From positions 98,763-162,762 of the forward strand of contig CAZTJK010000001.1 in assembly GCA_964613715.1 (NCBI GenBank): 64,000 bases of DNA, read 5' to 3'. Below, one piece after another: positions 9,085 to 63,259 of the stretch. The DNA is from an uncultured Candidatus Saccharibacteria bacterium. Its GTDB lineage: Bacteria > Patescibacteriota > Minisyncoccia > Phycocordibacterales > GWA1-40-21. A program made the position numbers and the translations under genes. Below the pieces are notes generated by a model, which ran no database searches, had not been told where the DNA came from, and worked only from the letters and a program-made list of their open reading frames with translations. Within the stretch, counting starts at the first letter, position 1; every line of letters begins with the position of its first letter.

Positions 9085-11691
9085 CTATTTTTTCTTCAGC
9101 ACCCGCTTCAGATATTTCCCAGTGTGCGACTTCTCATTCATCGCCACATCTTCAGGCGTGCCTTTCGCCACGACTTCCCCGCCCTTATCCCCGCCTTCCG
9201 GCCCGATGTCGATGATATAGTCAGACGACTTGATGAGATCCATATTGTGCTCGATGACGACCACCGTATTGCCGTTGTCGACGAGCTTCTGCAAAATCTC
9301 GATGAGCTTCTTCACATCCTCGTAGTGGAGGCCGATGGTCGGCTCGTCGAGGAAATAGATCGTCTTGTACATGCCCGGGCGATAGAGCTCGGAGGATATC
9401 TTCACGCGCTGCGCCTCGCCGCCCGAAAGGGTGGTCGCGGACTGGCCAAGCTTGAGATAGCCGAGGCCGACTTGGTCGAGGCAGTGCAGGCGGTCGTAGA
9501 CCGCCGGCAAATCCTCGAAGAATTTCAATCCGTCCTCCACCGTCATCTCGAGCACTTCGTGGATATTCTTGCCCTTGTATTTGACCTCGAGCGTCTCTTT
9601 GGTAAAGCGCTTGCCATGGCAGACATCGCACGGCACGTACACTGTCGGCAGGAAATGCATTTCCACTTCGATCGTGCCATTACCTTCGCAATTCTCGCAG
9701 CGGCCGCCTTTTACGTTGAACGAGAAGCGATTTGCTCCCCAGCCGCGCTCGCGGGCCGTCGCGGTCGTGGCGAACATATCGCGGATGAATGTCCACGCGC
9801 CGGTGTACGTCGCCGGGTTCGAGCGCGGCGTGCGACCGATCGGCGACTGATCGATCATGATAACGCGCGAGAGGTATTCGGAACCTTCAAAAGAAGTCGC
9901 ATTATAGGTATTCGCCGAGCGCATCTTCTTCTCGAGCCGCGCCTGCAAGTTTTTATAGAGAATCTCGTACACGAAAGAAGACTTGCCGGAGCCGGAAACG
10001 CCCGTAACCGTCACAAGCTTGCCGAGCGGCACGTCTACGCTCATATTCTTGATATTGAACACCTTGCCGCCGCGGACTTTCAGCTTGCCCTTGTCCTGGT
10101 CGCGGCGCTTTTTCGGCAGCGGAATCTTCGCCTCGCCGCGCAGGTAGTCAAGCGTGAGCGAACCGGATTTGTTCTCCTTTGCCGTGAGCAATTCTTCGAG
10201 CCAGCCAGAGACCACCACGCGGCCGCCGTGCACGCCGGCCTTTGGCCCGATGTCCACGATATAGTCCGAGGCATACATAGTGTCCTCGTCATGCTCGACG
10301 ACGAGTATCGTATTGCCGAGGTCGCGCAAATTCACGAGCGTCTTGATGAGCTTGTCATTGTCACGCTGATGCAAACCGATCGTCGGCTCGTCGAGCACAT
10401 AGAGAGCGCCAACGAGGCCCGAGCCGAGCTGCGAAGCAAGGCGTATGCGCTGTGCCTCCCCGCCCGAGAGCGTGTTCGCCCGGCGATCAAGCGAGAGATA
10501 CTCGATACCCACATCGGTCATAAAAAGCAGGCGCGAGTCGATTTCTTTCAAGATGACTTTGCAGATTTCAGCTTCTGTCTCCGTGAGCTTCAGACTCTCG
10601 AGGAAGAGCTTGGCATCGGTGATGGATTTCGCCGTATAGTCCACGATATTCACGCCGCCAAGGAGCACATGCAGTGCCTCCTCGCGCAAGCGTGCGCCTT
10701 TGCAGGTCTCGCAGAGCTCGTCCGTGAAGAAGTCCTTGGTCCCGAGGCCGTGGCAGGCAGGGCACGCGCCATACGGCGAGTTGAATGAAAAGAGGCGCGG
10801 CTCTATCTCCGGATACGAATAGCCGTCGTATGGACACATGAATTTTACGGAGATCATTTTTGTCTCCTCGGGCGTCTCCACTTTCAGGAGCCCCTTCGAC
10901 TCCTCAATCGCTTTTTCCACCGCGTCCGACAAGCGCTCCTTAATGCCCTCTTTCTTCTCCTTGAACTCGCTTGTGTAGAATTCATCAACGAGCACGTCGA
11001 TATCGTGCTTTTTGTTTTTGGACAAAATGATCTGATTGCGCAGCTTGTGCGCCGCGCCATCTACCTTCACCTCCGTATAGCCCTTCTCAAGGAGATCATA
11101 GAGCAGCTGATAGTACTCGCCTTTCCTGCCGACGACGATCGGCGAATAGATCTTCACCTTATCGCTCGTCACTTTCACGCCGAGAATATCTTTCGATTGC
11201 TTCGGCGATTTGAGATGCGTAACGGTATGGATGATGGTCTCAAGGATTTCCTCTTTCGATAATTTCTTGATTTCCCTGTTGCACACAAGGCAATGCGGCT
11301 TGCCGATGCGCGCGTAGAGGATGCGCAGGTAGTCGTATATCTCCGTGATGGTCGCCACGGTGGAGCGCGGGTTGTTCGAGCGCGATTTCTGGTCTATGGA
11401 AATAGCCGGCGACAGGCCGATGATCTCGTCCACATCCGGCTTTTGCATCTGGTGGAGGAACTGGCGTGCGTATGAGGAAAGCGACTCCACGTAGCGGCGC
11501 TGTCCCTCGGCAAAAATGGTATCAAATGCGAATGACGATTTACCGGAACCGGAAAGGCCCGTGACCGCGATCATCTTGTTGCGCGGCATGTGCACGGTGA
11601 TGTTCTTGAGATTGTGCGTCCGCGCGCCTTTGACGACGATCTCCTTCGCCTCTTCGTCAAAACCGGTCTTTGTGCTGTGTTTCGGGCTCAT
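9085..11691 (-). CDS. uvrA: Excinuclease ABC subunit A
   Basis: Two ABC ATPase modules (GLSGSGKSS and GVSGSGKSS) with zinc-finger Cys clusters. 868 aa. Confidence 0.9.
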
Positions 11692-11763
11692 ATATATGCG
11701 CTAACTCCCCCATGGACTGCTCCATAGGGGTTATTATCGGCATTCTACGCTCTCTTTATAGGT

Positions 11764-11790
11764 TTGACAATAGATAATCTATGATATTAT
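11764..11790 (+). promoter_or_regulatory. Putative sigma-70 promoter driving the retron ncRNA; its -35 overlaps a divergent uvrA promoter
   Basis: TTGACA, a 15-nt spacer, then TATTAT, ending about 7 nt before a1. On the opposite strand TTGTCA-17-TAGAAT points at uvrA. Confidence 0.4.
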
Positions 11791-11796
11791 GTTCAC

Positions 11797-12018
11797 TGAA
11801 CTTGTAAATTAAAAACCACTGCAGTATTTTTGTCTTTTTGTAAAAAGACTTCCGGGATATCTTTGACCTCAGGCGTTATATGTCTGGTGTCCATAGTAAG
11901 AAAAAATAAGAATAAAATCTTAAATTTCTGCTTAAAATAATCCTTGTCCTTTGAGAGGTTAGTGTCTTGAGAGGTAGGTAGAGTCAAATCTATCAACAAT
12001 AGCAACTTTACAAGTTCA
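11797..12018 (+). ncRNA. Retron msr-msd-like non-coding RNA bounded by 12-nt a1/a2 inverted repeats
   Basis: a1 tgaacttgtaaa (11797-11808) is the exact reverse complement of a2 tttacaagttca (12007-12018). There are internal hairpins (for example gtctttttgtaaaaagac). It lies immediately upstream of the retron-type RT in an AT-rich island. Confidence 0.5.
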
Positions 12019-12132
12019 TTGGGAGTGGTTTACGTTATTGTCCACCCTATAGTACAACTATGGAACTCATACTTTCATTGTTGCTTATTTTGCTCATCCT
12101 ACGGGAAAGCCAAATAAGGCACTAACACCTGA

Positions 12133-13011
12133 GTGGATAATGAAATTTTTTCTTCAAAAAAAGAACTTTTAAAATTTCTCAAGATCAGAGAAAACTTTTT
12201 GTATAATAATATCAAAGCTAAATATCAGGAAAAAAATTACAGAAAAAAAATGGTGGTTCGCGTCAAATCACAAAACCGAATAACAAATTAAAAGATGTTC
12301 AAAGAACTATACTGGATAAAATATTAGTCTTATCCCCGCAATTACCATGCGTGTATGGGTTATCAAAAAAGAAAGGCGTTGTCGCTAACGCACAAACCCA
12401 CCAAATTAACTATCCTTTTCAATTACTAACATTGGATATCAAAGATTTTTTCCCAAGCATTTCTAGAAAAAAAAATTACAGATATTTTTAAAAAAAATAA
12501 ATTTAACAAAGAAAACTCGGCAATTCTTACAAAACTATGTACTGTGAATGACTCACTGCCGCAAGGGGCGCCCACAAGCCCTTATTTGGCATCGTTGGTC
12601 TGTGAAAAAATGGATAAAAAAATCTATATTTACTGTAAGAAGAAAAAATTTATTTATACAAGATACTTTGATGATATTAGTATTTCTGGAAAAGACGTGT
12701 TGCTTGAAAAAAATATAAAAGATATTGAAAAAATTATCCAACAGCATGGTTTTATGCTAAATAATGATAAAAAATTTAGTTTTTTTGAAGCTGAAGATAA
12801 AATAATCACCGGTATAATAATTACAAATGGTAAGCTATCTGTAACTAAAGAATATAAAGATTCGATCAAGATTGCTTACAAAAATTATATTTTAGAAGAT
12901 AACCTTAAAAACCGAAATTTATTTTCGGGAAAATTTGGTTTTTATTTTCATGTGAATAAAAAAGATGCGTTGGATTTTTTACAAGAGTTAAAAAATAACA
13001 TTAATTGTTAA
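12133..13011 (+). pseudogene. Retron-type reverse transcriptase, frame interrupted by two compensating poly-A indels (possibly a pseudogene or homopolymer sequencing errors)
   Basis: Read across three frame segments the RT motifs appear in order: KKNGGSRQITKP, LKDVQRTILDKIL, VYGLSKKKGVVANAQTH (NAxxH), LDIKDFFPSI, LPQGAPTSPYLASLVC, YTRYFDDISI (YxDD) and ITGIIIT (the retron VTG-like motif). The frame shifts at an A7 run (12230-12236, one A short) and returns at an A9 run (12467-12475, one A extra). About 30% GC. Confidence 0.6.
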
Positions 13012-15042
13012 TTATTTCTTTTTCTTCCCCACCTTCCCCTCAATAGCCCGGATTTCATCCCGCAATATGGCTGCGGTTTCGAAATCGAGCATTTTCACTG
13101 CAGCGTTCATCTGTATCTCCTTTTGTTTGATGAGCTTGGCCGGGCTCTTTGCCGCAGCCGCTTCGTCTATGCGAAGCAGCTCGGCCACGGCCTTGTCATG
13201 GTCAGAGCGCAGATGCTCGGTGATGTCGTGGATTTTCTTGATGATGGTCTTCGGCGTGATGCCATGCTTGGTATTGTACGCTACCTGCTTTTCCCTGCGG
13301 CGATTCGTCTCCTCAAGGGCGCGCTCGATGCTGCCCGTCATGTTGTCGGCATAGAGCACGACACGGCCGGCGGCATTCCTCGCCGCACGGCCGATGGTCT
13401 GGATGAGCGAGGTATCGCTGCGGAGAAAGCCCTCTTTGTCCGCATCGAGTATGCCGATGAACTCTACCTCGGGCAGGTCGAGGCCCTCGCGCAAAAGGTT
13501 CACGCCGACGAGACAGTCGAACTTTCCTTTGCGGAAATTGGTCAGGATGTCGATGCGGTCTATGGTCTTTATCTCGCTATGCAGATACTCGGCCTTCACG
13601 CCTTTTTCTTTGAGATATTCCGAAAGATCCTCGGCCATTTTCTTGGTCAGGGTCGTCGCGATCACGCGGCCGTCGCGCTTCACGATCTTTTCCGTCTCGT
13701 CAATGAAGTCGTATACCTGGGACTTGTTCTTCCCCTTTACCTCGGTAATCGGCTTGATCTCGACAATCGGGTCCACGAGGCCCGTCGGACGGATGATCTG
13801 CTCTACGGTATTCTCGGAATGCTCGCGCTCGAAATCGCCCGGCGTGGCCGAAGTATAGATGACCTGGTTCACCCGATCCTCAAACTCCGGGAACTGCAGC
13901 GGGCGGTTGTCCTTGGCGGAGGGCAAGCGGAAGCCGTAGTCCACGAGCGTCTTTTTGCGCGAAGCATCGCCTGCGTACATGCCGCGCAGCTGCGGCACTG
14001 TGACATGCGATTCGTCGATGACGGTCAAGAAATCCGGGCTGCCATCTGCTTTGTGCGGGAAATACGCGAGCAGGGTTTCCGGCGGTTCGCCGGCTTTTTT
14101 GCCCGAGAAATGCCGCGCATAATTCTCGATGCCATTGCAATAGCCGACCTCGCGGATGAGCGAGAGGTCATGCGTGGTACGGCGGCGCAAGCGCTCGGCC
14201 TCGAGCTGCTTCCCTTCTTTCTTCAGCTCCGCGACGCGCTCATCGAGCTCTATCTTGATGCTTTCGATCGCGCGCTTCTGCTCGTCTTTGTTCGTCACGA
14301 AATGCTTGGCCGGAAAGATGAAAATTGCTTTCAGATTGTCTTCCGTAATTTTCCGCGAAACTGAGTCAATTTTCGTGATGCGGGAAATCGCATCATCCTC
14401 AAAATCCACTCGAATGAGAATTTTCTCGCCCGTCGGCATGACTTCGACAGAGTTGCCCACCGCGCGGAATTGGCCGGGCTTCACATCAGTATTGGTCCTC
14501 GTGAAATACACGCCGATGAGCCGCTTGATGAGATCCTGGCGGGACTGCTTGTCGCCCACTGATAGCTTGATATTCGTTTTCTCGTATTCTGCCGGGGAGC
14601 CGAGGCCGTAGATGCAGGAAACGGATGCGACGATGATGACGTCTTTTCTCGTGAGCAGGGCCTGGGTGGAGGCATGGCGCAGGCGGTCTATCTCCTCGTT
14701 TATCATCGCCTCTTTTTCTATGTACGTGTCGGTAATCGGCATATACGCCTCCGGCTGATAGTAGTCGTAATAGGAGACGAAATAATGCACGGCATTGTCC
14801 GGGAAGAACTCCTTGTACTCCTGCGCGAGCTGGGCCGCGAGCGTCTTGTTGTGCGCGATGACCAAGGTCGGCTTCTGCGCTTTTTCAATGACATTGGCAA
14901 CGGTAAAGGTCTTGCCGGTGCCGGTCGCGCCGTAGAGTATCTGCTTTTTCAAGCCCTTTTTGAGGCCCTCTGCGAGGGATTTGATGGCCTCTGGCTGGTC
15001 GCCTGCGGGCGCGTATTCGTTCTTGATCTTGAATCTGTCCAT
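13012..15042 (-). CDS. uvrB: Excinuclease ABC subunit B
   Basis: Helicase motifs (GATGTGKTF), a UvrB interaction domain and a C-terminal UVR coiled coil. 676 aa. Confidence 0.9.
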   Translation of the reverse strand: MDRFKIKNEYAPAGDQPEAIKSLAEGLKKGLKKQILYGATGTGKTFTVANVIEKAQKPTLVIAHNKTLAAQLAQEYKEFFPDNAVHYFVSYYDYYQPEAYMPITDTYIEKEAMINEEIDRLRHASTQALLTRKDVIIVASVSCIYGLGSPAEYEKTNIKLSVGDKQSRQDLIKRLIGVYFTRTNTDVKPGQFRAVGNSVEVMPTGEKILIRVDFEDDAISRITKIDSVSRKITEDNLKAIFIFPAKHFVTNKDEQKRAIESIKIELDERVAELKKEGKQLEAERLRRRTTHDLSLIREVGYCNGIENYARHFSGKKAGEPPETLLAYFPHKADGSPDFLTVIDESHVTVPQLRGMYAGDASRKKTLVDYGFRLPSAKDNRPLQFPEFEDRVNQVIYTSATPGDFEREHSENTVEQIIRPTGLVDPIVEIKPITEVKGKNKSQVYDFIDETEKIVKRDGRVIATTLTKKMAEDLSEYLKEKGVKAEYLHSEIKTIDRIDILTNFRKGKFDCLVGVNLLREGLDLPEVEFIGILDADKEGFLRSDTSLIQTIGRAARNAAGRVVLYADNMTGSIERALEETNRRREKQVAYNTKHGITPKTIIKKIHDITEHLRSDHDKAVAELLRIDEAAAAKSPAKLIKQKEIQMNAAVKMLDFETAAILRDEIRAIEGKVGKKKK

Positions 15043-25011: not shown

Positions 25012-25224
25012 TTACATCCCCGCAGGCTTCATGATCCTCTTGAGGAGGAAAATGGAATAGACGGCGGAAAGCCCGACAAGGCCATACACGATCGTCGAAA
25101 GCGTCGAGCCGGTGCCGCAGATCGCATCAACCAGATTCCAGTTGAGCGCCACGAGACCCCAGTTCAGGCCGCCGACAATGACGAGCACGAGCGCAATGGT
25201 GTCGAGCCAACTAAGCTTGGTCAT
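25012..25224 (-). CDS. DUF378-like small membrane protein
   Basis: LDTIALVLVIVGGLNWGLVA...VYGLVGLSAVY motif. Start trimmed to MTKLSW. Confidence 0.5.
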   Translation of the reverse strand: MTKLSWLDTIALVLVIVGGLNWGLVALNWNLVDAICGTGSTLSTIVYGLVGLSAVYSIFLLKRIMKPAGM

Positions 25225-25264
25225 GGATATATATTGATTGCTAAGCGACCTTTCTCGCCTTTCA

Positions 25265-25777
25265 TTATACTCCTGAAGATGACCTCGTGAAAGCAAGCGC
25301 TTTTCTCTTTGCCAGCCGGTATTCATGCACGGTCAGACACACGATAAGAAAATCGAGAACAGCCAAGCCGAGCATCCATAGCGAATATGCAAGCGAAAGA
25401 CGGTAGAATTCATACACGCAAAAAGCAGCAAAGACGGTGATCGCAAGCGGATATATTCGCAGTTTCCGCTTTAAAAGCCCGATGACGAGCACGAGCTTCA
25501 CCACGCCATGCGCAAGCATATAAATGCCAAAAAAATACTGTGAGTTGACTGAATACGAGGCCGCAAGATTGACGATGAAATTCGCCACCTTGTCATTTGG
25601 GTCGTCCGATAGCTCCGATTGTAAAAGGTCGAGCACATGTGTGATGAGGTATGCCTTGCTCACAAAGAGGATCACAGCTGCACCAGCTACTTCAAGGAGG
25701 CCATTCATACCTTTTATGAACAAAGTGAATCGAAAGAGCGTGAAAATCTTTTTTTCTTCGGCTGCGTTCATGGCCAT
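25265..25777 (-). CDS. Multi-TM membrane protein, function unknown
   Basis: Four predicted TM helices. 170 aa. Confidence 0.45.
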   Translation of the reverse strand: MAMNAAEEKKIFTLFRFTLFIKGMNGLLEVAGAAVILFVSKAYLITHVLDLLQSELSDDPNDKVANFIVNLAASYSVNSQYFFGIYMLAHGVVKLVLVIGLLKRKLRIYPLAITVFAAFCVYEFYRLSLAYSLWMLGLAVLDFLIVCLTVHEYRLAKRKALAFTRSSSGV

Positions 25778-25829
25778 AGTATAACAAACAAAAAGCCCCG
25801 ACGTGCATCGGGGCTTTGCGGCATTGCCG

Positions 25830-25976
25830 CTATTTGAGCCGGATCATCTGCTGATTCGGCGGCGGCAGCGGAGAATCGAATTCGCTTCGCCGCAGCGGCG
25901 CGGGCTCGAGCTCGGCCATGGCCTGCTTGTAGATATCCGACATCTTCGCGACAAACGACTGAAAGAGTTTCTTCAT
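25830..25976 (-). CDS. Small hypothetical protein (48 aa), below the ORF-track size cutoff
   Basis: GGGAGG Shine-Dalgarno 6 nt before the ATG (MKKLFQSFVAKMSDIYKQAMAELEP...). A minus-strand terminator (gccccgatgcacgtcggggc followed by ttttt) lies immediately downstream. Confidence 0.45.
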   Translation of the reverse strand: MKKLFQSFVAKMSDIYKQAMAELEPAPLRRSEFDSPLPPPNQQMIRLK

Positions 25977-26030
25977 TGCGATCCTCCCACATGGAAATAA
26001 CGACACTAATAGAAATATACCATGTAATAT

Positions 26031-26759
26031 CTATTTGTCAAGATAGTGGCGCAGCGTGTAGAGCCAGTCTTCTTCCCCTTCTTCATTCGTACGCTTCTGC
26101 TCGAAAAGCCATTCGAGATACCGGCGATCCGTCTTCAGCACTTCTTCAATAGTCTTGCCATTGTATTTGCCAAAATTGAACTTGGTGAAGAGCACCGGCG
26201 TGCGAGAAATCTCCATCATGCGCTCGATCGCTGCCGCTTCGCTCCCCGCCTCTGCTGTCATTTTTGCAAGCAGCCGCGGAAATATTGCTGCAAGCACGCG
26301 CACATCCCCCTCGGCATCATGCGCCGTGCCTGTTACATCAAGGTGCAGATAGTAGCGGAGAAATTGCAGGCCGTATTCAGGAATGGCATTCTCCTTGTCG
26401 AGATAGCGCGCCATGCGGAAGGTGCAGATGAAGCGCGGCACGGAAATACCTTCAGACTCGAGCATGCTGATATCGAATTTCGCATTATGCGCCACGAGTA
26501 TTCCCTGCTCAAGCAGCTTTTGCAGATCCTTTGCCATGCTACTCCCAGCAAATGCTGGCTTGTCCGCCAGCATCTCATTCGTAATATGATTGATGCTCAT
26601 AGACTTCACAGACACCGGCATTGGCGGCTTGAAGTATTCAGTGCGTATCGTCTCCCCTGCCTGATAGCAGACTTGGCAAAGCCGGTCTGTGCCAAGAATA
26701 TTTCCAGTCGTTTCAGTGTCGAGGAAAATGAGCGGTAAATTATTAAATTTAGATTGCAT
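26031..26759 (-). CDS. DnaQ-like 3'-5' exonuclease (DEDDh family) with a C-terminal extension
   Basis: Exo I motif LIFLDTETTG and Exo III motif HNAKFDISML. Confidence 0.65.
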   Translation of the reverse strand: MQSKFNNLPLIFLDTETTGNILGTDRLCQVCYQAGETIRTEYFKPPMPVSVKSMSINHITNEMLADKPAFAGSSMAKDLQKLLEQGILVAHNAKFDISMLESEGISVPRFICTFRMARYLDKENAIPEYGLQFLRYYLHLDVTGTAHDAEGDVRVLAAIFPRLLAKMTAEAGSEAAAIERMMEISRTPVLFTKFNFGKYNGKTIEEVLKTDRRYLEWLFEQKRTNEEGEEDWLYTLRHYLDK

Positions 26760-26788
26760 TTCTTTTTTGCTATTAAAAACAGTTGCTT

Positions 26789-27490
26789 TTATTTCTGAGT
26801 AATTAAAGCATACTTTTGAAGATTTTCTATAATTTTTGGTCTAACTATCTTATTTACCCAAATAGAATATAACCAAAGAATTGTATTATAAGTTTGAGTC
26901 TCAGTCATAATATCTCTTACAAAAAATAAAGCTGCTGCATTTTGTTCAATTAATTCAATAAATGCGACATGTAATGGTATTAATGCCGAATTTTCAATAG
27001 TATTTAAATTTTTTACTTTCAGGGCAAATTCTTCTAACATGTTTAATAAACTTATATGTAAATCTAAGATTGTATCATCAATTTTTGCTGTTTCAGGATT
27101 AAAAAATATTAATAACTGATTAGTAAAATTGCTTGAATCTCTCTGCATTAAATCACTAATAATATGTTTTTCGATATGGATGCTAGGAAACAGAAAAGAA
27201 CTGTTTTTCTTTAAAAAAGCCTTGCTAGTGTGTATCCACTCCAAAAGAATTTTTTCGCGAAAAAAAGTTACCTGGTCTATTGCAGCCGCAGTAAGATCTT
27301 GTTGTTTTTTGTAAAAATAGTTTACTATAGCAATAATTAAAGAAAAAGCACCAAAACTACTTAAAACTTTTTGAATAATATCTAACTGAAATTCAGATAA
27401 AGTTTTTAATCCTATCAAATAACCAATTAAAAATAACAGAAAACCTGCAAAGCAAAGAAGGAGAAATGTTACGATGTCTTTTTTTATCAT
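26789..27490 (-). CDS. Hypothetical 2-TM membrane protein encoded in a second AT-rich island (about 28% GC)
   Basis: Two N-terminal TM helices, then a soluble domain of about 160 aa. A TAAAAT box 12 nt upstream of the ATG. Its composition matches the retron island rather than the flanking genes. Confidence 0.45.
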   Translation of the reverse strand: MIKKDIVTFLLLCFAGFLLFLIGYLIGLKTLSEFQLDIIQKVLSSFGAFSLIIAIVNYFYKKQQDLTAAAIDQVTFFREKILLEWIHTSKAFLKKNSSFLFPSIHIEKHIISDLMQRDSSNFTNQLLIFFNPETAKIDDTILDLHISLLNMLEEFALKVKNLNTIENSALIPLHVAFIELIEQNAAALFFVRDIMTETQTYNTILWLYSIWVNKIVRPKIIENLQKYALITQK

Positions 27491-27517
27491 ATCTTTATCG
27501 TAATTTTAACATATTTT

Positions 27518-28087
27518 ATGTATACTATACTTATGAAAAAGCTTCTCTATTACATAGCTATACTCACGATCATCGTGGTCGGATTCCATTATCTCTCCCC
27601 TTACCTGCCAAAAGCTGGCGCGCCGCAAGCGGCAGCATTTGCTGATCCAAAAAATGGCACGTACACTATCGAGAATGAAAAGGTTACGCTCGCGAGCGGC
27701 AAAGCGGAGCAGAGCGTGACGCCAGATTCAAGTTCGAAAGAGATCACGGAATATTTCGGGAATGTTGCTACGGGTGATGTGAATGGCGATGGTCTGCCAG
27801 ACAAGGTGTTTCTTCTCGTGCAGGCAGGCGGTGGCAGCGGCACCTTTTACTATATTGCCGTAGCGCTTGGTGCGAAAAGCGGCGGCTATACGGGTACAAA
27901 TGCAGTATTTATCGGCGACCGTATTGCTCCGCAAAGCACTGAAATAAACAAAGGAAATATCATCGTAAACTATGCAGACCGCCTGCCGGGCGAACCTTTC
28001 ACTGCCGAGCCGACCATCGGCATGTCAAAATATTTCCGAGTGACGAATGGCGTGCTTGCCGAGATAAAGAATCCGAATTCGGATTAG
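27518..28087 (+). CDS. Membrane-anchored or secreted hypothetical protein
   Basis: N-terminal TM or signal segment. GDVNGDGLPD-like motif. 189 aa. Confidence 0.45.
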   Translation: MYTILMKKLLYYIAILTIIVVGFHYLSPYLPKAGAPQAAAFADPKNGTYTIENEKVTLASGKAEQSVTPDSSSKEITEYFGNVATGDVNGDGLPDKVFLLVQAGGGSGTFYYIAVALGAKSGGYTGTNAVFIGDRIAPQSTEINKGNIIVNYADRLPGEPFTAEPTIGMSKYFRVTNGVLAEIKNPNSD

Positions 28088-29751
28088 AAATTCTTCTTCA
28101 CAAATAAGCGCACGATGCGCAACTCTTCATATGAATAGCCCTCGCCGATCTTTGCCTTCACCGGCGCAAGGAGGAAGTCGCGGTTCTCGCCGTACATGTC
28201 GCGGAATAGCATATATATTTTCTTGAATTTCGCCGCGGACACTTCATTCTTCAGATGAGCAATATCGAAATCCGGCTCTTTCTCGATGATCTTTTCTATA
28301 TGGTCGAGGACCGTGCCAAGCTTCACGCCCCGATGCTCCATGATCTCGGCAAGGCCCATCCCCTCGGCAAGCATATTGCGCGTCTCCTCGATCGGCGAAA
28401 TGCGCGCCTTCTTCCCTTTCTTGGCTTTGGCCCCGTCTGCAGGCGCGACTTTTTCCAAAAATTCTTTCTGCTTCTCTCGTATCTGATTGTCATCAAGCGA
28501 GTGGAGCCATGCCGCATCGCGATCACTTGCCTCCTGCAAGTCTTCATCAAAAAGAGCGATGTCTTCGCGGATCTCGAGCGCATTCTTGTTGAGCCCGACA
28601 AGGCGCAGGCCGGCAAGCGTGCGCACGCGCGAAAGCGCGACATAGCCCATGCCACGCTCGAAGGATTTCGAGAGATCCACTTCGACGGCGTCCAAGCTCA
28701 TGCCCTGGCTCTTGTGCACGGTGATCGCCCAGGCAAGGCGAAGCGGATACTGCGTGATCATGGCTTTCGTCTTCCCTTCTTCCTCCACGACCCAGGATTC
28801 TTTTTCCGGCACGATAACTTTGCCATTGGTAAGCATAATTTTCGGGCCGAATGCATCGCAGGCGATGACTTTGCCAAGCGTGCCGTTTGCATAGCCGGCA
28901 TCGAAATTATTCTTCACGAACATCACTCGCGCGCCAACTTTGAGACGCAGCATTTCCGGAGCAAGGCAGCTTTTTTTGAGCGCATCCACAAGCGGCTTCC
29001 TGCCCTTGTCTTCCATCTGATAGGCGAAGAGCTGTCCGGGCAATTTATTGAGCTCGGTATCATTGATACTGTCGACGTTCACATTGTGCGTATGCAGGCG
29101 CGTCGGCTCGATATCGCCGAGCTTGGCATCGTACCTCGCCCGCAAATGGCCAAGAGATTCTTCCGAAAGCCGGCTGGCGCGGATACCATTTAGAATCCTA
29201 ATGAACGCATCGTCCTTGTGGCGGAACTGCTCTTCGAGATAGCAGATTTTCAGATCGAGCTTTTTCCAGGTCTCCGATTTATAGGGAAAGAGCGATTCGG
29301 GCTCGCCCGGCTTTGATACCGGCGGGAGCTGGAAAAAATCGCCACAGAGCACGATCTGCATGCCGCCGAATGGCAATTGGTTCCGCTTCAGGTGCCGCGC
29401 AATGCGCTCGACAAGATCGAGCCGGAAATGATGCAGCATGGAGACCTCGTCGATGATGAGCACCTGCGTAGCCTTCAAGCGGTCCTGCAAGTATTTCTTT
29501 TCTTCAAGACTTTCGAGATCGTATTCAGTGAGATGGCTCGCGATGCCAAGCCCGCTCCAGGAGTGAATGGTCATGCCGCCCATATGGGTCGCAGCGATGC
29601 CGGTCGAAGCCGTGATACCGACCTCAACGCCTTTCTGGCGAAGATACTTTATATATTCATTCAGGAGATATGTCTTGCCGCTGCCTGCCGCGCCCGTGAC
29701 ATAGCAGTTGTATCCCATCTTCAATATGTCGAGCGCCTCTTTCTGAGTCAT
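28084..29751 (-). CDS. PIF1/RecD-like SF1 ATP-dependent DNA helicase
   Basis: Walker A GAAGSGKT, a DExx box LIIDEVSM and a C-terminal helicase fold. Start trimmed to MTQKEALDIL. Confidence 0.7.
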   Translation of the reverse strand: MTQKEALDILKMGYNCYVTGAAGSGKTYLLNEYIKYLRQKGVEVGITASTGIAATHMGGMTIHSWSGLGIASHLTEYDLESLEEKKYLQDRLKATQVLIIDEVSMLHHFRLDLVERIARHLKRNQLPFGGMQIVLCGDFFQLPPVSKPGEPESLFPYKSETWKKLDLKICYLEEQFRHKDDAFIRILNGIRASRLSEESLGHLRARYDAKLGDIEPTRLHTHNVNVDSINDTELNKLPGQLFAYQMEDKGRKPLVDALKKSCLAPEMLRLKVGARVMFVKNNFDAGYANGTLGKVIACDAFGPKIMLTNGKVIVPEKESWVVEEEGKTKAMITQYPLRLAWAITVHKSQGMSLDAVEVDLSKSFERGMGYVALSRVRTLAGLRLVGLNKNALEIREDIALFDEDLQEASDRDAAWLHSLDDNQIREKQKEFLEKVAPADGAKAKKGKKARISPIEETRNMLAEGMGLAEIMEHRGVKLGTVLDHIEKIIEKEPDFDIAHLKNEVSAAKFKKIYMLFRDMYGENRDFLLAPVKAKIGEGYSYEELRIVRLFVKKNF

Positions 29752-61984: not shown

Positions 61985-62851
61985 TCAGAGGAAATTAAAT
62001 ATGCGCAGTTTCTCCTCTACCACCTTTTCCACAGCTGCGATGGTGCTCTCCATGTACTTATACGGCGCCACTTCATCCTTTTTTGCTGCCATTTCGGCAG
62101 CGAGGGCATCTTTGAAGGCGACACGCAGCTCCGTCGAGACATGTACTTCATTCACGCCGGCCTTGATTGCTGCTTGAATGTCTTCTTTCGAATTACCGCT
62201 TGCGCCGTGCAGCACAAGCGGGATGCCGACGGCTTTCTTAATGTCTGCAACGCGTGCGATATTGAGCGCCGGATCCTTACCACCTGCGAGCATGCCGTGG
62301 ATATTGCCGACTGCTGGTGCGAGCATGTCGATGCCCGTCTTCGCGATGAAATCCTTCGCCTCTTCCGGTTTGGTCAGGAATTCCTCGGTGATCTTTATGC
62401 CAGCAGGAATGGCTGCATGCACCGATGAACCCTCGCCGATGAACCCGAGCTCACCCTCGACGATGATTTCCGGGTTCACGCTGCGCGCATAGTCTACGCA
62501 TTGCTTGGTAACCTTGATATTTTCCTCGTACGAGAGCTTCGTGCCGTCGAAAATGACGCTGTCATAGCCCGCGTCGATGCATTCTTTCACCCCTTCAAAT
62601 GAATAGGTGTGGTCGCCATTGAGAAAAATCGGATGATTGTATTCCTCGCGCATGGTCTTTACGAGCGCGGCGATTTCCCGCACGCCCATGTACTTGCGCT
62701 CGCCCTCGGCTGCGCCGATCACAACCGGCAGATCGAGCTTACGCGCGGCATTCACAATGCCGCGCAGCATTTCAAGATCAGAAATATTAAAATGACCGAG
62801 CGCTATGCCTTTTTCCCCCGCTTCTTTTATATATTCCCGTAGCGTTTTCAT
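61985..62851 (-). CDS. fba: Fructose-bisphosphate aldolase, class II
   Basis: LNGDHTYSFEG and HGASG zinc/FBP-site motifs. Confidence 0.85.
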   Translation of the reverse strand: MKTLREYIKEAGEKGIALGHFNISDLEMLRGIVNAARKLDLPVVIGAAEGERKYMGVREIAALVKTMREEYNHPIFLNGDHTYSFEGVKECIDAGYDSVIFDGTKLSYEENIKVTKQCVDYARSVNPEIIVEGELGFIGEGSSVHAAIPAGIKITEEFLTKPEEAKDFIAKTGIDMLAPAVGNIHGMLAGGKDPALNIARVADIKKAVGIPLVLHGASGNSKEDIQAAIKAGVNEVHVSTELRVAFKDALAAEMAAKKDEVAPYKYMESTIAAVEKVVEEKLRIFNFL

Positions 62852-62918
62852 GTCGCCATTGTATCAAAGAAAAGAAAAAAGGCGATTTTTGCTTTCGCAA
62901 AAATCGCCTCAGCTTATT

Positions 62919-63236
62919 TTACTGCCAGGGCAGAAAGCTTGTACCGGTTTGAAAAGATTTATATGACAAAGGCACTTTTATCTTTCCAGTCTGGATCTCC
63001 AAAATTATTGAATCAGCAAATGTTGGGAGAAAAATGGCGTCATACCAAACAAAAACAGTAATGGCACCTCCACCGATTCTTGCAACCCACATACCGAAAT
63101 TAGCTGATCCAGTATTTAACCATAAGCAGAAGAAAATACCTGTAACTGCTATAGCTATCAAATATTTTAGATGCTTTTCTTCCTTTTTTCTTCGTAAAAA
63201 ATACCCAATATACTTTTTTGTATTTTGATTTTCCAC
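62919..63236 (-). CDS. Small membrane protein in a lower-GC segment
   Basis: Two or three TM helices. 105 aa. Confidence 0.35.
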   Translation of the reverse strand: MENQNTKKYIGYFLRRKKEEKHLKYLIAIAVTGIFFCLWLNTGSANFGMWVARIGGGAITVFVWYDAIFLPTFADSIILEIQTGKIKVPLSYKSFQTGTSFLPWQ

Positions 63237-63259
63237 ACAAACCTCCTATAAATGAACTT

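Follow-up and report, generated by a model that had tools for sequence, protein, structure and literature searches.

Patescibacteria, also known as the Candidate Phyla Radiation (CPR), account for a large share of bacterial diversity. Among the defence genes described in other bacteria, the abortive infection (Abi) genes of lactococci act as single genes and have an atypically low GC content. In retrons of type IV (Ec48/Retron-Eco6), the effector, termed 2TM, is a small protein with two N-terminal transmembrane (TM) helices and a soluble C-terminal domain which is borne on foreign DNA, and the TM effectors of the cyclic oligonucleotide-based anti-phage signalling system (CBASS) provide a further analogy for membrane effectors (10.1101/2020.06.21.156273). 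In Patescibacteria themselves, known defence systems are still scarce, and no more than one phage of the phylum has been reported (PMC12366544). LdgA and DdgA, two single-gene defences which are near-exclusive to Patescibacteria and have no detectable homology, were found experimentally by functional metagenomic selection, and Patescibacteria-specific single-gene defences are therefore known to exist (PMC12366544). Here, a gene for a 233-aa membrane-anchored protein is described which lies in an AT-rich islet of contig CAZTJK010000001.1 from an uncultured Candidatus Saccharibacteria bacterium, within a window of 64,000 nucleotides (the whole stretch of DNA that was analysed). The islet is foreign, horizontally acquired DNA of ~0.8 kb carrying this single intact gene. 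The reading favoured here, with confidence a little short of even, is that of a recently acquired one-gene islet whose gene belongs to a stand-alone, Patescibacteria-restricted cargo of hot spots and defence islands, with phage defence or exclusion by a membrane-anchored protein as its likeliest role.

The family to which this protein belongs resembles the single-gene membrane-anchored Abi or exclusion proteins and the CBASS TM effectors in being encoded by a solitary gene with a GC content far below that of the host. It also shares with them an N-terminal membrane anchor followed by a cytoplasmic domain, as well as a placement among restriction and Abi genes. In sequence, however, the family is not similar to any of the Abi, SLATT-type or CBASS effector models of PADLOC or Pfam. 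In its Patescibacteria-restricted profile it is also comparable to LdgA and DdgA as these have been described (PMC12366544).

The foreign origin of the islet is observed in its composition. In 300-nt windows the GC content falls to 0.25-0.28 at ~26,740-27,540, against 0.47-0.58 on either side, and the edges are abrupt. The open reading frame (ORF) has a GC content of 0.262, while 702-nt windows elsewhere have a mean of 0.515 (sd 0.027), corresponding to z = -9.4. Only one other stretch of the 64-kb window dips likewise, at 11.7-13.0 kb and with the same GC, and once both islands are set aside the next lowest 702-nt window stands at 0.397. The GC content at third codon positions (GC3) is 0.19 in the islet ORF and 0.53-0.76 in neighbouring host genes, a value which rules out amino-acid composition alone as the cause of the shift. 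Both the windowed GC and the GC3 bear out the description in an earlier note, made from the sequence alone, of a sharply AT-rich island between flanks of normal GC, and they place it outside genome variation. Both islet junctions (window 25,023-28,720) are matched at 100% by contigs of the sequencing runs SRR12313477, SRR12313479 and SRR12313480, and since three independently assembled read sets reproduce them, the islet is no assembly chimera.

Furthermore, the gene is absent from the corresponding site in relatives. In the nearest relative (L010, whose flanking exonuclease is 68% identical), a PIF1 helicase gene is followed by genes for an 88-aa RRM protein, the exonuclease and a small membrane protein; neither a family gene nor a GC dip is present at this site. 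A family profile searched against the six-frame translation of 80 exonuclease loci (up to 6 kb on each side, less at contig ends) found no member, and in the 24 Patescibacteria-like exonuclease loci checked (L010-L033) the lowest 600-nt GC window never went beyond z = -3.4. Because it is missing from the nearest relative and from the 80 exonuclease loci, the gene is not a conserved resident of the site, and the housekeeping homologs at a conserved position which the earlier note had named as the finding that would speak against its proposal do not occur there. The composition far outside genome variation and the absence of the gene from the syntenic site together identify the islet as foreign. 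The same profile detects one copy only in the window. As to the means of arrival, no integrase ORF was found inside the islet and no tRNA gene within 20 kb of it, and its ends show neither terminal repeats, direct or inverted, nor a target duplication that would be convincing. The window copy is accordingly without mobility signatures (integrase, flanking repeats, tRNA target). Such signatures do accompany other copies of the family, which are located at a tRNA or tmRNA gene or next to an integrase.

The distribution of the family was established in two steps. Among 5.8 billion proteins, a word-indexed search returned six relatives only, with 42-46% identity over 79-99% of the protein. A hidden Markov model (HMM) built from the alignment of these six retrieved 251 of 1.84 billion cluster representatives (clusters at 50% identity) at E<=1e-3, 177 of them at E<=1e-10. 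All members with a named source are Patescibacteria (Nomurabacteria, Paceibacterota and Campbellbacteria). As far as these sequence searches reach, the family appears to be restricted to Patescibacteria, to have no curated model and to be new to curated databases. Scans of the window protein and of 134 aligned members (alignment A2, in which 20-48% of residues are identical to those of the window protein and column identity averages 20%) yielded nothing usable, in line with the earlier description of the cytoplasmic domain as uncharacterised: NCBIfam gave nothing, PHROGs isolated weak matches only, and a PADLOC-DB v2 scan of the 134 members scattered weak matches only. In Pfam the window protein is without a match, and the sole recurring lead from any curated library is the uncharacterised domain DUF4760 (PF15956), matched by two of the 134 members with a best E of 2e-4; the gathering score of PF15956 is not reached, and the window protein does not match it at E<=10. 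A DUF4760 gene has been described in a Serratia genomic island, where it adjoins integrase genes (PMC9964261).

A hydropathy scan places two TM helices in the protein, at residues ~10-28 and ~38-56. The claim of a single protein-coding gene with two N-terminal TM helices therefore holds, and so does that of a soluble domain, the size of which is ~175 residues instead of the 160 first given. TM helix 2 is universal in the family, and TM helix 1 is shared by about half of its members only. An AlphaFold2 model from the 134-sequence alignment, which replaced a seven-sequence model with a predicted local distance difference test score (pLDDT) of 66, has a pLDDT of 94.2 and a predicted template modelling score (pTM) of 0.84. 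Helices are modelled at residues 2-30, 36-95, 111-126, 139-161, 168-196, 202-212 and 220-226, so that TM helix 2 extends as a 60-residue helix into a six-to-seven-helix bundle with one small hairpin. A sequence-profile search of the PDB gave nothing meaningful, and the predicted fold is without counterpart among solved structures. According to the positive-inside rule, a lysine- and arginine-rich stretch next to a TM helix marks the cytoplasmic side. Such a stretch follows TM helix 2, which suggests that the C-terminal domain is cytoplasmic.

Conservation within the alignment is concentrated in two places. In TM helix 2, small residues form a stripe along positions 43, 47, 50, 54 and 57 (fractions 0.57, 0.80, 0.93, 0.96 and 0.56, respectively); towards its end A54 is present in 0.89 of the members and Y58, which closes the helix, in 0.76. 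Such spacing of small residues is typical of tight helix-helix packing, and oligomerisation in the membrane is inferred from it. The cytoplasmic domain contains the near-invariant residues F77, R78 (frequency 0.95), Q125 (0.93), N150 (0.99), E153 (0.98), E154 (0.87), F177, E182 (0.97), Y208 (1.00) and W211 (1.00). These polar and aromatic residues suggest that the domain has a dedicated site for binding or catalysis and does not serve as a mere scaffold. Taken together, the homologs, the near-invariant residues and the confident model establish that the protein is real and under selection.

The neighbourhoods of family members in other genomes were compared for ~15 independent contexts, a number which includes two short unclassifiable contigs (L103 and L104). 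In six of these ~15 contexts (a small sample and a raw count), known defence genes lie within four genes of the family gene. In one of them, represented by L005, L093 and L097, a type I methyltransferase (630 bits), a DUF4145 gene and hsdS precede the family gene, the start of which overlaps the hsdS stop. AbiEii lies 16 nt upstream of the family gene in L006, and a type II restriction enzyme, encoded in two ORFs, 32 nt upstream in L008. In L114, the family gene follows a DpnI-like gene, type IIG methyltransferase and restriction genes and one further ORF. The remaining two, L099 and L106, are at the same time located at tRNA genes: in the former, tRNA-Gln is followed by the PDC-S53 helicase gene (1231 bits) and, after a 78-aa ORF, by the family gene; in the latter, an integrase gene, GajB (420 bits) and GajA (530 bits) come after tRNA-Lys, and the family gene lies between three small ORFs and a second integrase gene.

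In total, a tRNA, tmRNA or rRNA gene is found next to the family gene in six contexts, including L099 and L106. The other four have no recognised defence gene. In L095 and L111 the family gene is found between pyrG and purC/E, at a distance of 162 nt from the preceding tRNA-Gln, in L091 it adjoins tRNA-Tyr, in L109 it is separated from smpB-tmRNA upstream by ~1.2 kb, including a gene for 279 aa, and has a Fic gene nearby, and in L090 it is 240 nt from a 23S rRNA gene. Two long loci, L092 and L113, show ordinary neighbours only. In every locus measured, the GC content of the family gene is below that of its surroundings, by 2-24 points. The family thus behaves as an accessory gene which moves through hot spots and defence islands.

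How such a protein could act can be outlined on the basis of its architecture. TM helix 2, through its small-residue stripe, would anchor the protein, as an oligomer, in the membrane, and the cytoplasmic polar site (R78, Q125, N150, E153/E154, E182, Y208 and W211) would sense or bind a ligand or protein related to infection. This event might in turn lead to perturbation of the membrane, as in abortive infection, or to a block of a membrane-proximal step of infection; each of these steps, like the defence function itself, is put forward conditionally. The suggestion in the earlier note of an independent defence or phage-exclusion gene is indirectly strengthened by homologs whose genes immediately follow, or are no more than four genes away from, type I and type IIG restriction-modification (R-M) genes, a type II restriction enzyme, AbiEii, Gabija and PDC-S53. 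Drawing on this context evidence besides the architecture, an independent defence gene is plausible and the best reading at hand. A more specific version, to be entertained more hesitantly still, would see in the protein the first known example of a Patescibacteria-restricted group of single-gene membrane-anchored anti-phage effectors, with an undescribed all-helical fold and an invariant R-Q-N-E-E-Y-W site, which spreads among the streamlined genomes of the phylum as one-gene cargo of ~0.8 kb.

Several observations weigh against a defence function. Nine of the ~15 contexts have no known defence gene, and the enrichment in the others, a raw count unscaled to any background rate for Patescibacteria, is suggestive. 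The window copy itself has no adjoining recognised defence gene, and its PIF1 helicase and exonuclease neighbours are conserved in a relative. PADLOC yields no match to the window protein at E<=1, and a Foldseek search of the PDB gave no significant match (best E 0.17). Kinship with Abi or retron-effector families, for which the earlier note had proposed a homology and structure search, is thus not borne out by PADLOC, Pfam or PDB folds. A Foldseek search of BFVD returned one borderline match, the unnamed viral protein A0A3G8F6F1 (probability 0.99, E 0.11, TM-score 0.44-0.52). Besides the architecture there is no sign of pore formation, and the conserved polar site is equally compatible with an enzyme or a binding protein of non-defence role.

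This last point leads to the main rival, according to which the gene is non-defence cargo of mobile elements with another membrane-linked role, such as immunity against membrane-acting toxins, entry exclusion directed at DNA, conjugative or otherwise, or that of a small enzyme or regulator, and its nearness to defence genes is due to shared integration hot spots only. Many of the contexts are indeed plain hot spots marked by tRNA, tmRNA or rRNA genes or by integrases, those without known defence genes are as numerous as stated, Fic and MerR-type genes are among the neighbours too, and the near-invariant polar residues would suit a specific binding or catalytic site of this kind. On the other hand, the tight same-strand placement directly after defence genes, with an overlap or gaps of 16-32 nt, is repeated, no conserved partner toxin gene lies alongside, and relatives are missing from mobile elements: tblastn searches with the protein and the family consensus against phage and plasmid collections gave no match even at E<=1, and two scans of viral contigs found no family relatives. 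Non-defence cargo of this type is considered less likely than defence and is the most serious competitor; even if it were correct, the family would remain a marker of integration hot spots and of recent gene flow in Patescibacteria. Pairing with the exonuclease, descent from a retron and an artefact or housekeeping origin are weaker. In the first of these, the gene and the downstream DEDDh exonuclease gene would be co-transcribed as a two-gene unit of sensor or anchor and nuclease effector. Both genes are on the same strand with a 29-nt gap in which no terminator-like hairpin was called, the first 8-9 exonuclease codons are within island DNA, and DEDDh domains are known in defence contexts, the exonuclease matching the PADLOC models DEDDh (4e-28) and PDC-S48. 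Its GC content is host-like, however, and related stretches occur in at least 148 places in other genomes, with no family member in the 80 loci searched. Moreover, family members elsewhere lack an exonuclease of this kind behind them; a single further RNase_T gene was seen (in L099), 4.4 kb away and on the opposite strand, so that a functional pair is improbable. Lower still stands the view that the gene encodes an ordinary lineage-specific membrane protein or represents a spurious ORF or an assembly artefact, as the lack of annotation and of any known domain, together with the origin of the genome from a metagenome assembly, might suggest. A run of 233 open codons in DNA of 26% GC has a chance of ~1e-9 (own calculation, with ~8.6% stop codons expected at islet composition), and the conserved homologs, the high-confidence predicted fold, the identical junctions in three assemblies, a GC3 beyond any effect of amino-acid composition and the absence of the gene from relatives all argue against it, making this the least probable of the explanations considered.

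The earlier note had also raised, as conjecture, a displaced gene linked to the retron of the island at 11.7-13.0 kb, read here as a type IV-like 2TM effector parted from its reverse transcriptase (RT), and had suggested the same foreign donor for both islands. The existence of the first island, its GC and its retron-type RT were confirmed. An intact 155-aa C-terminal ORF matches retron RT models, and no effector gene is found beside the RT, so the retron island has no effector of its own. The architecture is likewise shared with the Ec48 effector (bioRxiv 10.1101/2020.06.21.156273), and nine of the 134 family members weakly match the PADLOC model 2TM_IV, with a best E of 3.9e-4. These matches, located by a scan of concatenated members, are in register but limited to TM helix 2 and the next helix (TY ... 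FRE; member residues ~34-104 against profile positions 67-139 of 235), and the soluble domains have no detectable similarity. When the family profile was compared with the Ec48 effector by hhalign, 39 columns (TM2 ... FRE) were aligned with a Prob of 27% and an E of 6.6e-4; with a two-sequence Ec48-family alignment, the second sequence being an Acinetobacter plasmid homolog and the only distant homolog found, the Prob fell to 0.7% (E 0.084). Furthermore, the RT nearest to the islet gene is 14 kb away, is readable in full only over three frameshifts, each at an A-run, and after reconstruction matches the PADLOC models RT_III-A (7e-67) and RT_II-A (2e-66) best, with none of the type IV models, to which 2TM effectors are linked, in the top 25. 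Homologs of the islet gene do not sit beside retron RTs either, since a tblastn search with the window RT across 224 kb at 34 family-bearing loci found no RT, and in contrast to the type IV effector TM helix 1 is optional in the family. The proposal of a common donor fails to find support in the dinucleotide signature, which does not discriminate: the distance between the islands is 0.160, within the range of 0.089-0.210 between the islet and unrelated AT-rich family genes of other genomes. The protein thus shares its architecture with retron 2TM effectors, while kinship, a family-wide association with retrons and a common donor are unsupported; descent from the retron is very improbable, and the reading of a displaced effector, rejected on the type of the RT, the lack of RTs at the 34 loci and the lack of profile-profile kinship to Ec48, is already largely refuted.

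For the preferred reading of a stand-alone defence or exclusion gene, the combination of a phylum-restricted family, a confident predicted structure and repeated R-M, Abi and Gabija neighbourhoods provides a concrete single-gene candidate of 700 bp. The case also shows that tiny genomes can gain accessory functions via one-gene islets with razor-sharp compositional borders.

The features of the locus and of the first AT-rich island are compiled in Table 1. Upstream of the gene, the hexamer TAAAAT is present exactly 12 nt before the ATG, as the earlier note had it, and is a candidate -10 box. A consensus promoter scan did not call this box, and no clear Shine-Dalgarno sequence precedes the 233-aa ORF.

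Table 1. Coordinates of the islet gene, its predicted domains, its neighbours and the first AT-rich island (positions in the window)
Feature	Position	Strand	Basis or remark
CDS of the 233-aa membrane-anchored protein	26789..27490	-	ORF list; stop codon 26789-26791; homologs; AlphaFold2
TM helix 1, residues ~7-28	27407..27472	-	Family hydropathy scan; model helix 2-30; optional in family
TM helix 2, residues ~37-58	27317..27382	-	Family conservation; model helix 36-95
Predicted cytoplasmic all-helical domain, residues 59-233	26792..27316	-	134-member alignment; model
Divergent AT-rich intergenic region, 42 nt	27491..27532		Read from sequence
TAAAAT, candidate -10 box	27503-27508	-	Read from sequence
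Islet 3' edge, AT-rich	26734..26788	-	GC 0.22-0.30 in 60-nt windows
DEDDh 3'-5' exonuclease, RNase_T with ExoX-like C-terminal part	26031..26759	-	Pfam, PADLOC; normal GC
Divergent normal-GC gene, 184/189 aa	27518/27533..28087	+	N-terminal hydrophobic helix; weak FG-GAP-like match
First AT-rich island	11720-13011		Between uvrA and uvrB
uvrA	9085..11691	-	
uvrB	13012..15042	-	

The two flanking genes are as the earlier note described them, a DnaQ-like exonuclease, here assigned to the DEDDh type, on one side and a gene of normal GC on the other. The closest relatives of the exonuclease all come from metagenome-assembled genomes (MAGs) of Patescibacteria, with 46-68% identity, which places the window in this phylum. 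Besides the 29-nt spacer, the 3' edge of the islet takes in the start of the exonuclease gene over 8-9 codons (MQSKFNNL). The exonucleases of relatives can be aligned only from residue ~10, and these first codons of the window copy lie in island-like DNA (26734-26759). Expression of the exonuclease may now proceed from island-borne signals. The insertion may also have replaced the original 5' end and promoter of the exonuclease gene. On the other side, the start of the divergent neighbour at 27533 is taken from a 184-aa gene call in contig L001, and beyond this gene a PIF1-type helicase with an HTH_40 tail follows. The divergent gene was undetected in the nearest relative, where the gene for the 88-aa RRM-type RNA-binding protein (L010, 5632-5898) occupies the slot held in the window by the divergent gene and the islet. 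Due to this difference, the intergenic slot between the PIF1 helicase and the exonuclease can be regarded as variable.

Further observations concern individual family loci and matches. The type II restriction enzyme of L008 (168-1263) is encoded in two overlapping ORFs which cover profile positions 1-122 and 123-372, and is probably frameshifted and inactivated. In L099 (4746-9223), the islet after tRNA-Gln includes, besides the full-length PDC-S53 helicase, the 78-aa ORF and the family gene, a hydrophobic ORF of 167 aa; these four genes, on the same strand and separated by short gaps, may form a multi-gene unit. The 23S rRNA gene of L090 (3661-7763) spans 4.1 kb against a 2.9-kb model and must therefore hold large insertions. 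The match to A0A3G8F6F1, the sole high-probability structure match, spans 178 columns of this 193-aa viral protein, which may represent a relative of the family in phages.

In the first island, the frameshifts may reflect a decaying retron or homopolymer errors, yet the equally A-rich 233-aa gene is intact. Two pairs of inverted repeats lie upstream of the RT start, at 11757-11772/12036-12051 (16 nt, 88%) and 11794-11808/12007-12021 (15 nt, 93%), with a spacing compatible with the a1/a2 arms of a retron msr-msd. A search of Rfam on this island gave no family match; a sub-threshold match to CRISPR-DR50 was taken as chance. The Ec48 effector used for comparison was traced via a 214-nt fragment of the Ec48 insert from a supplement, which is present in 57 E. 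coli genomes. In E. coli ATCC 43896 (NZ_CP024278.1; L115 4980-5684), the gene annotated as "retron Ec48 family effector membrane protein" (176 aa) is frameshifted, and its product lacks TM helix 1 for this reason, while phage pro147 carries an intact Ec48 effector of 236 aa, 98.7% identical in one piece. Finally, a milder dip at 62850-63250, with a GC content of ~0.40 the lowest outside both islands, overlaps a 105-aa ORF with hydrophobic segments at 62919..63236 on the minus strand.

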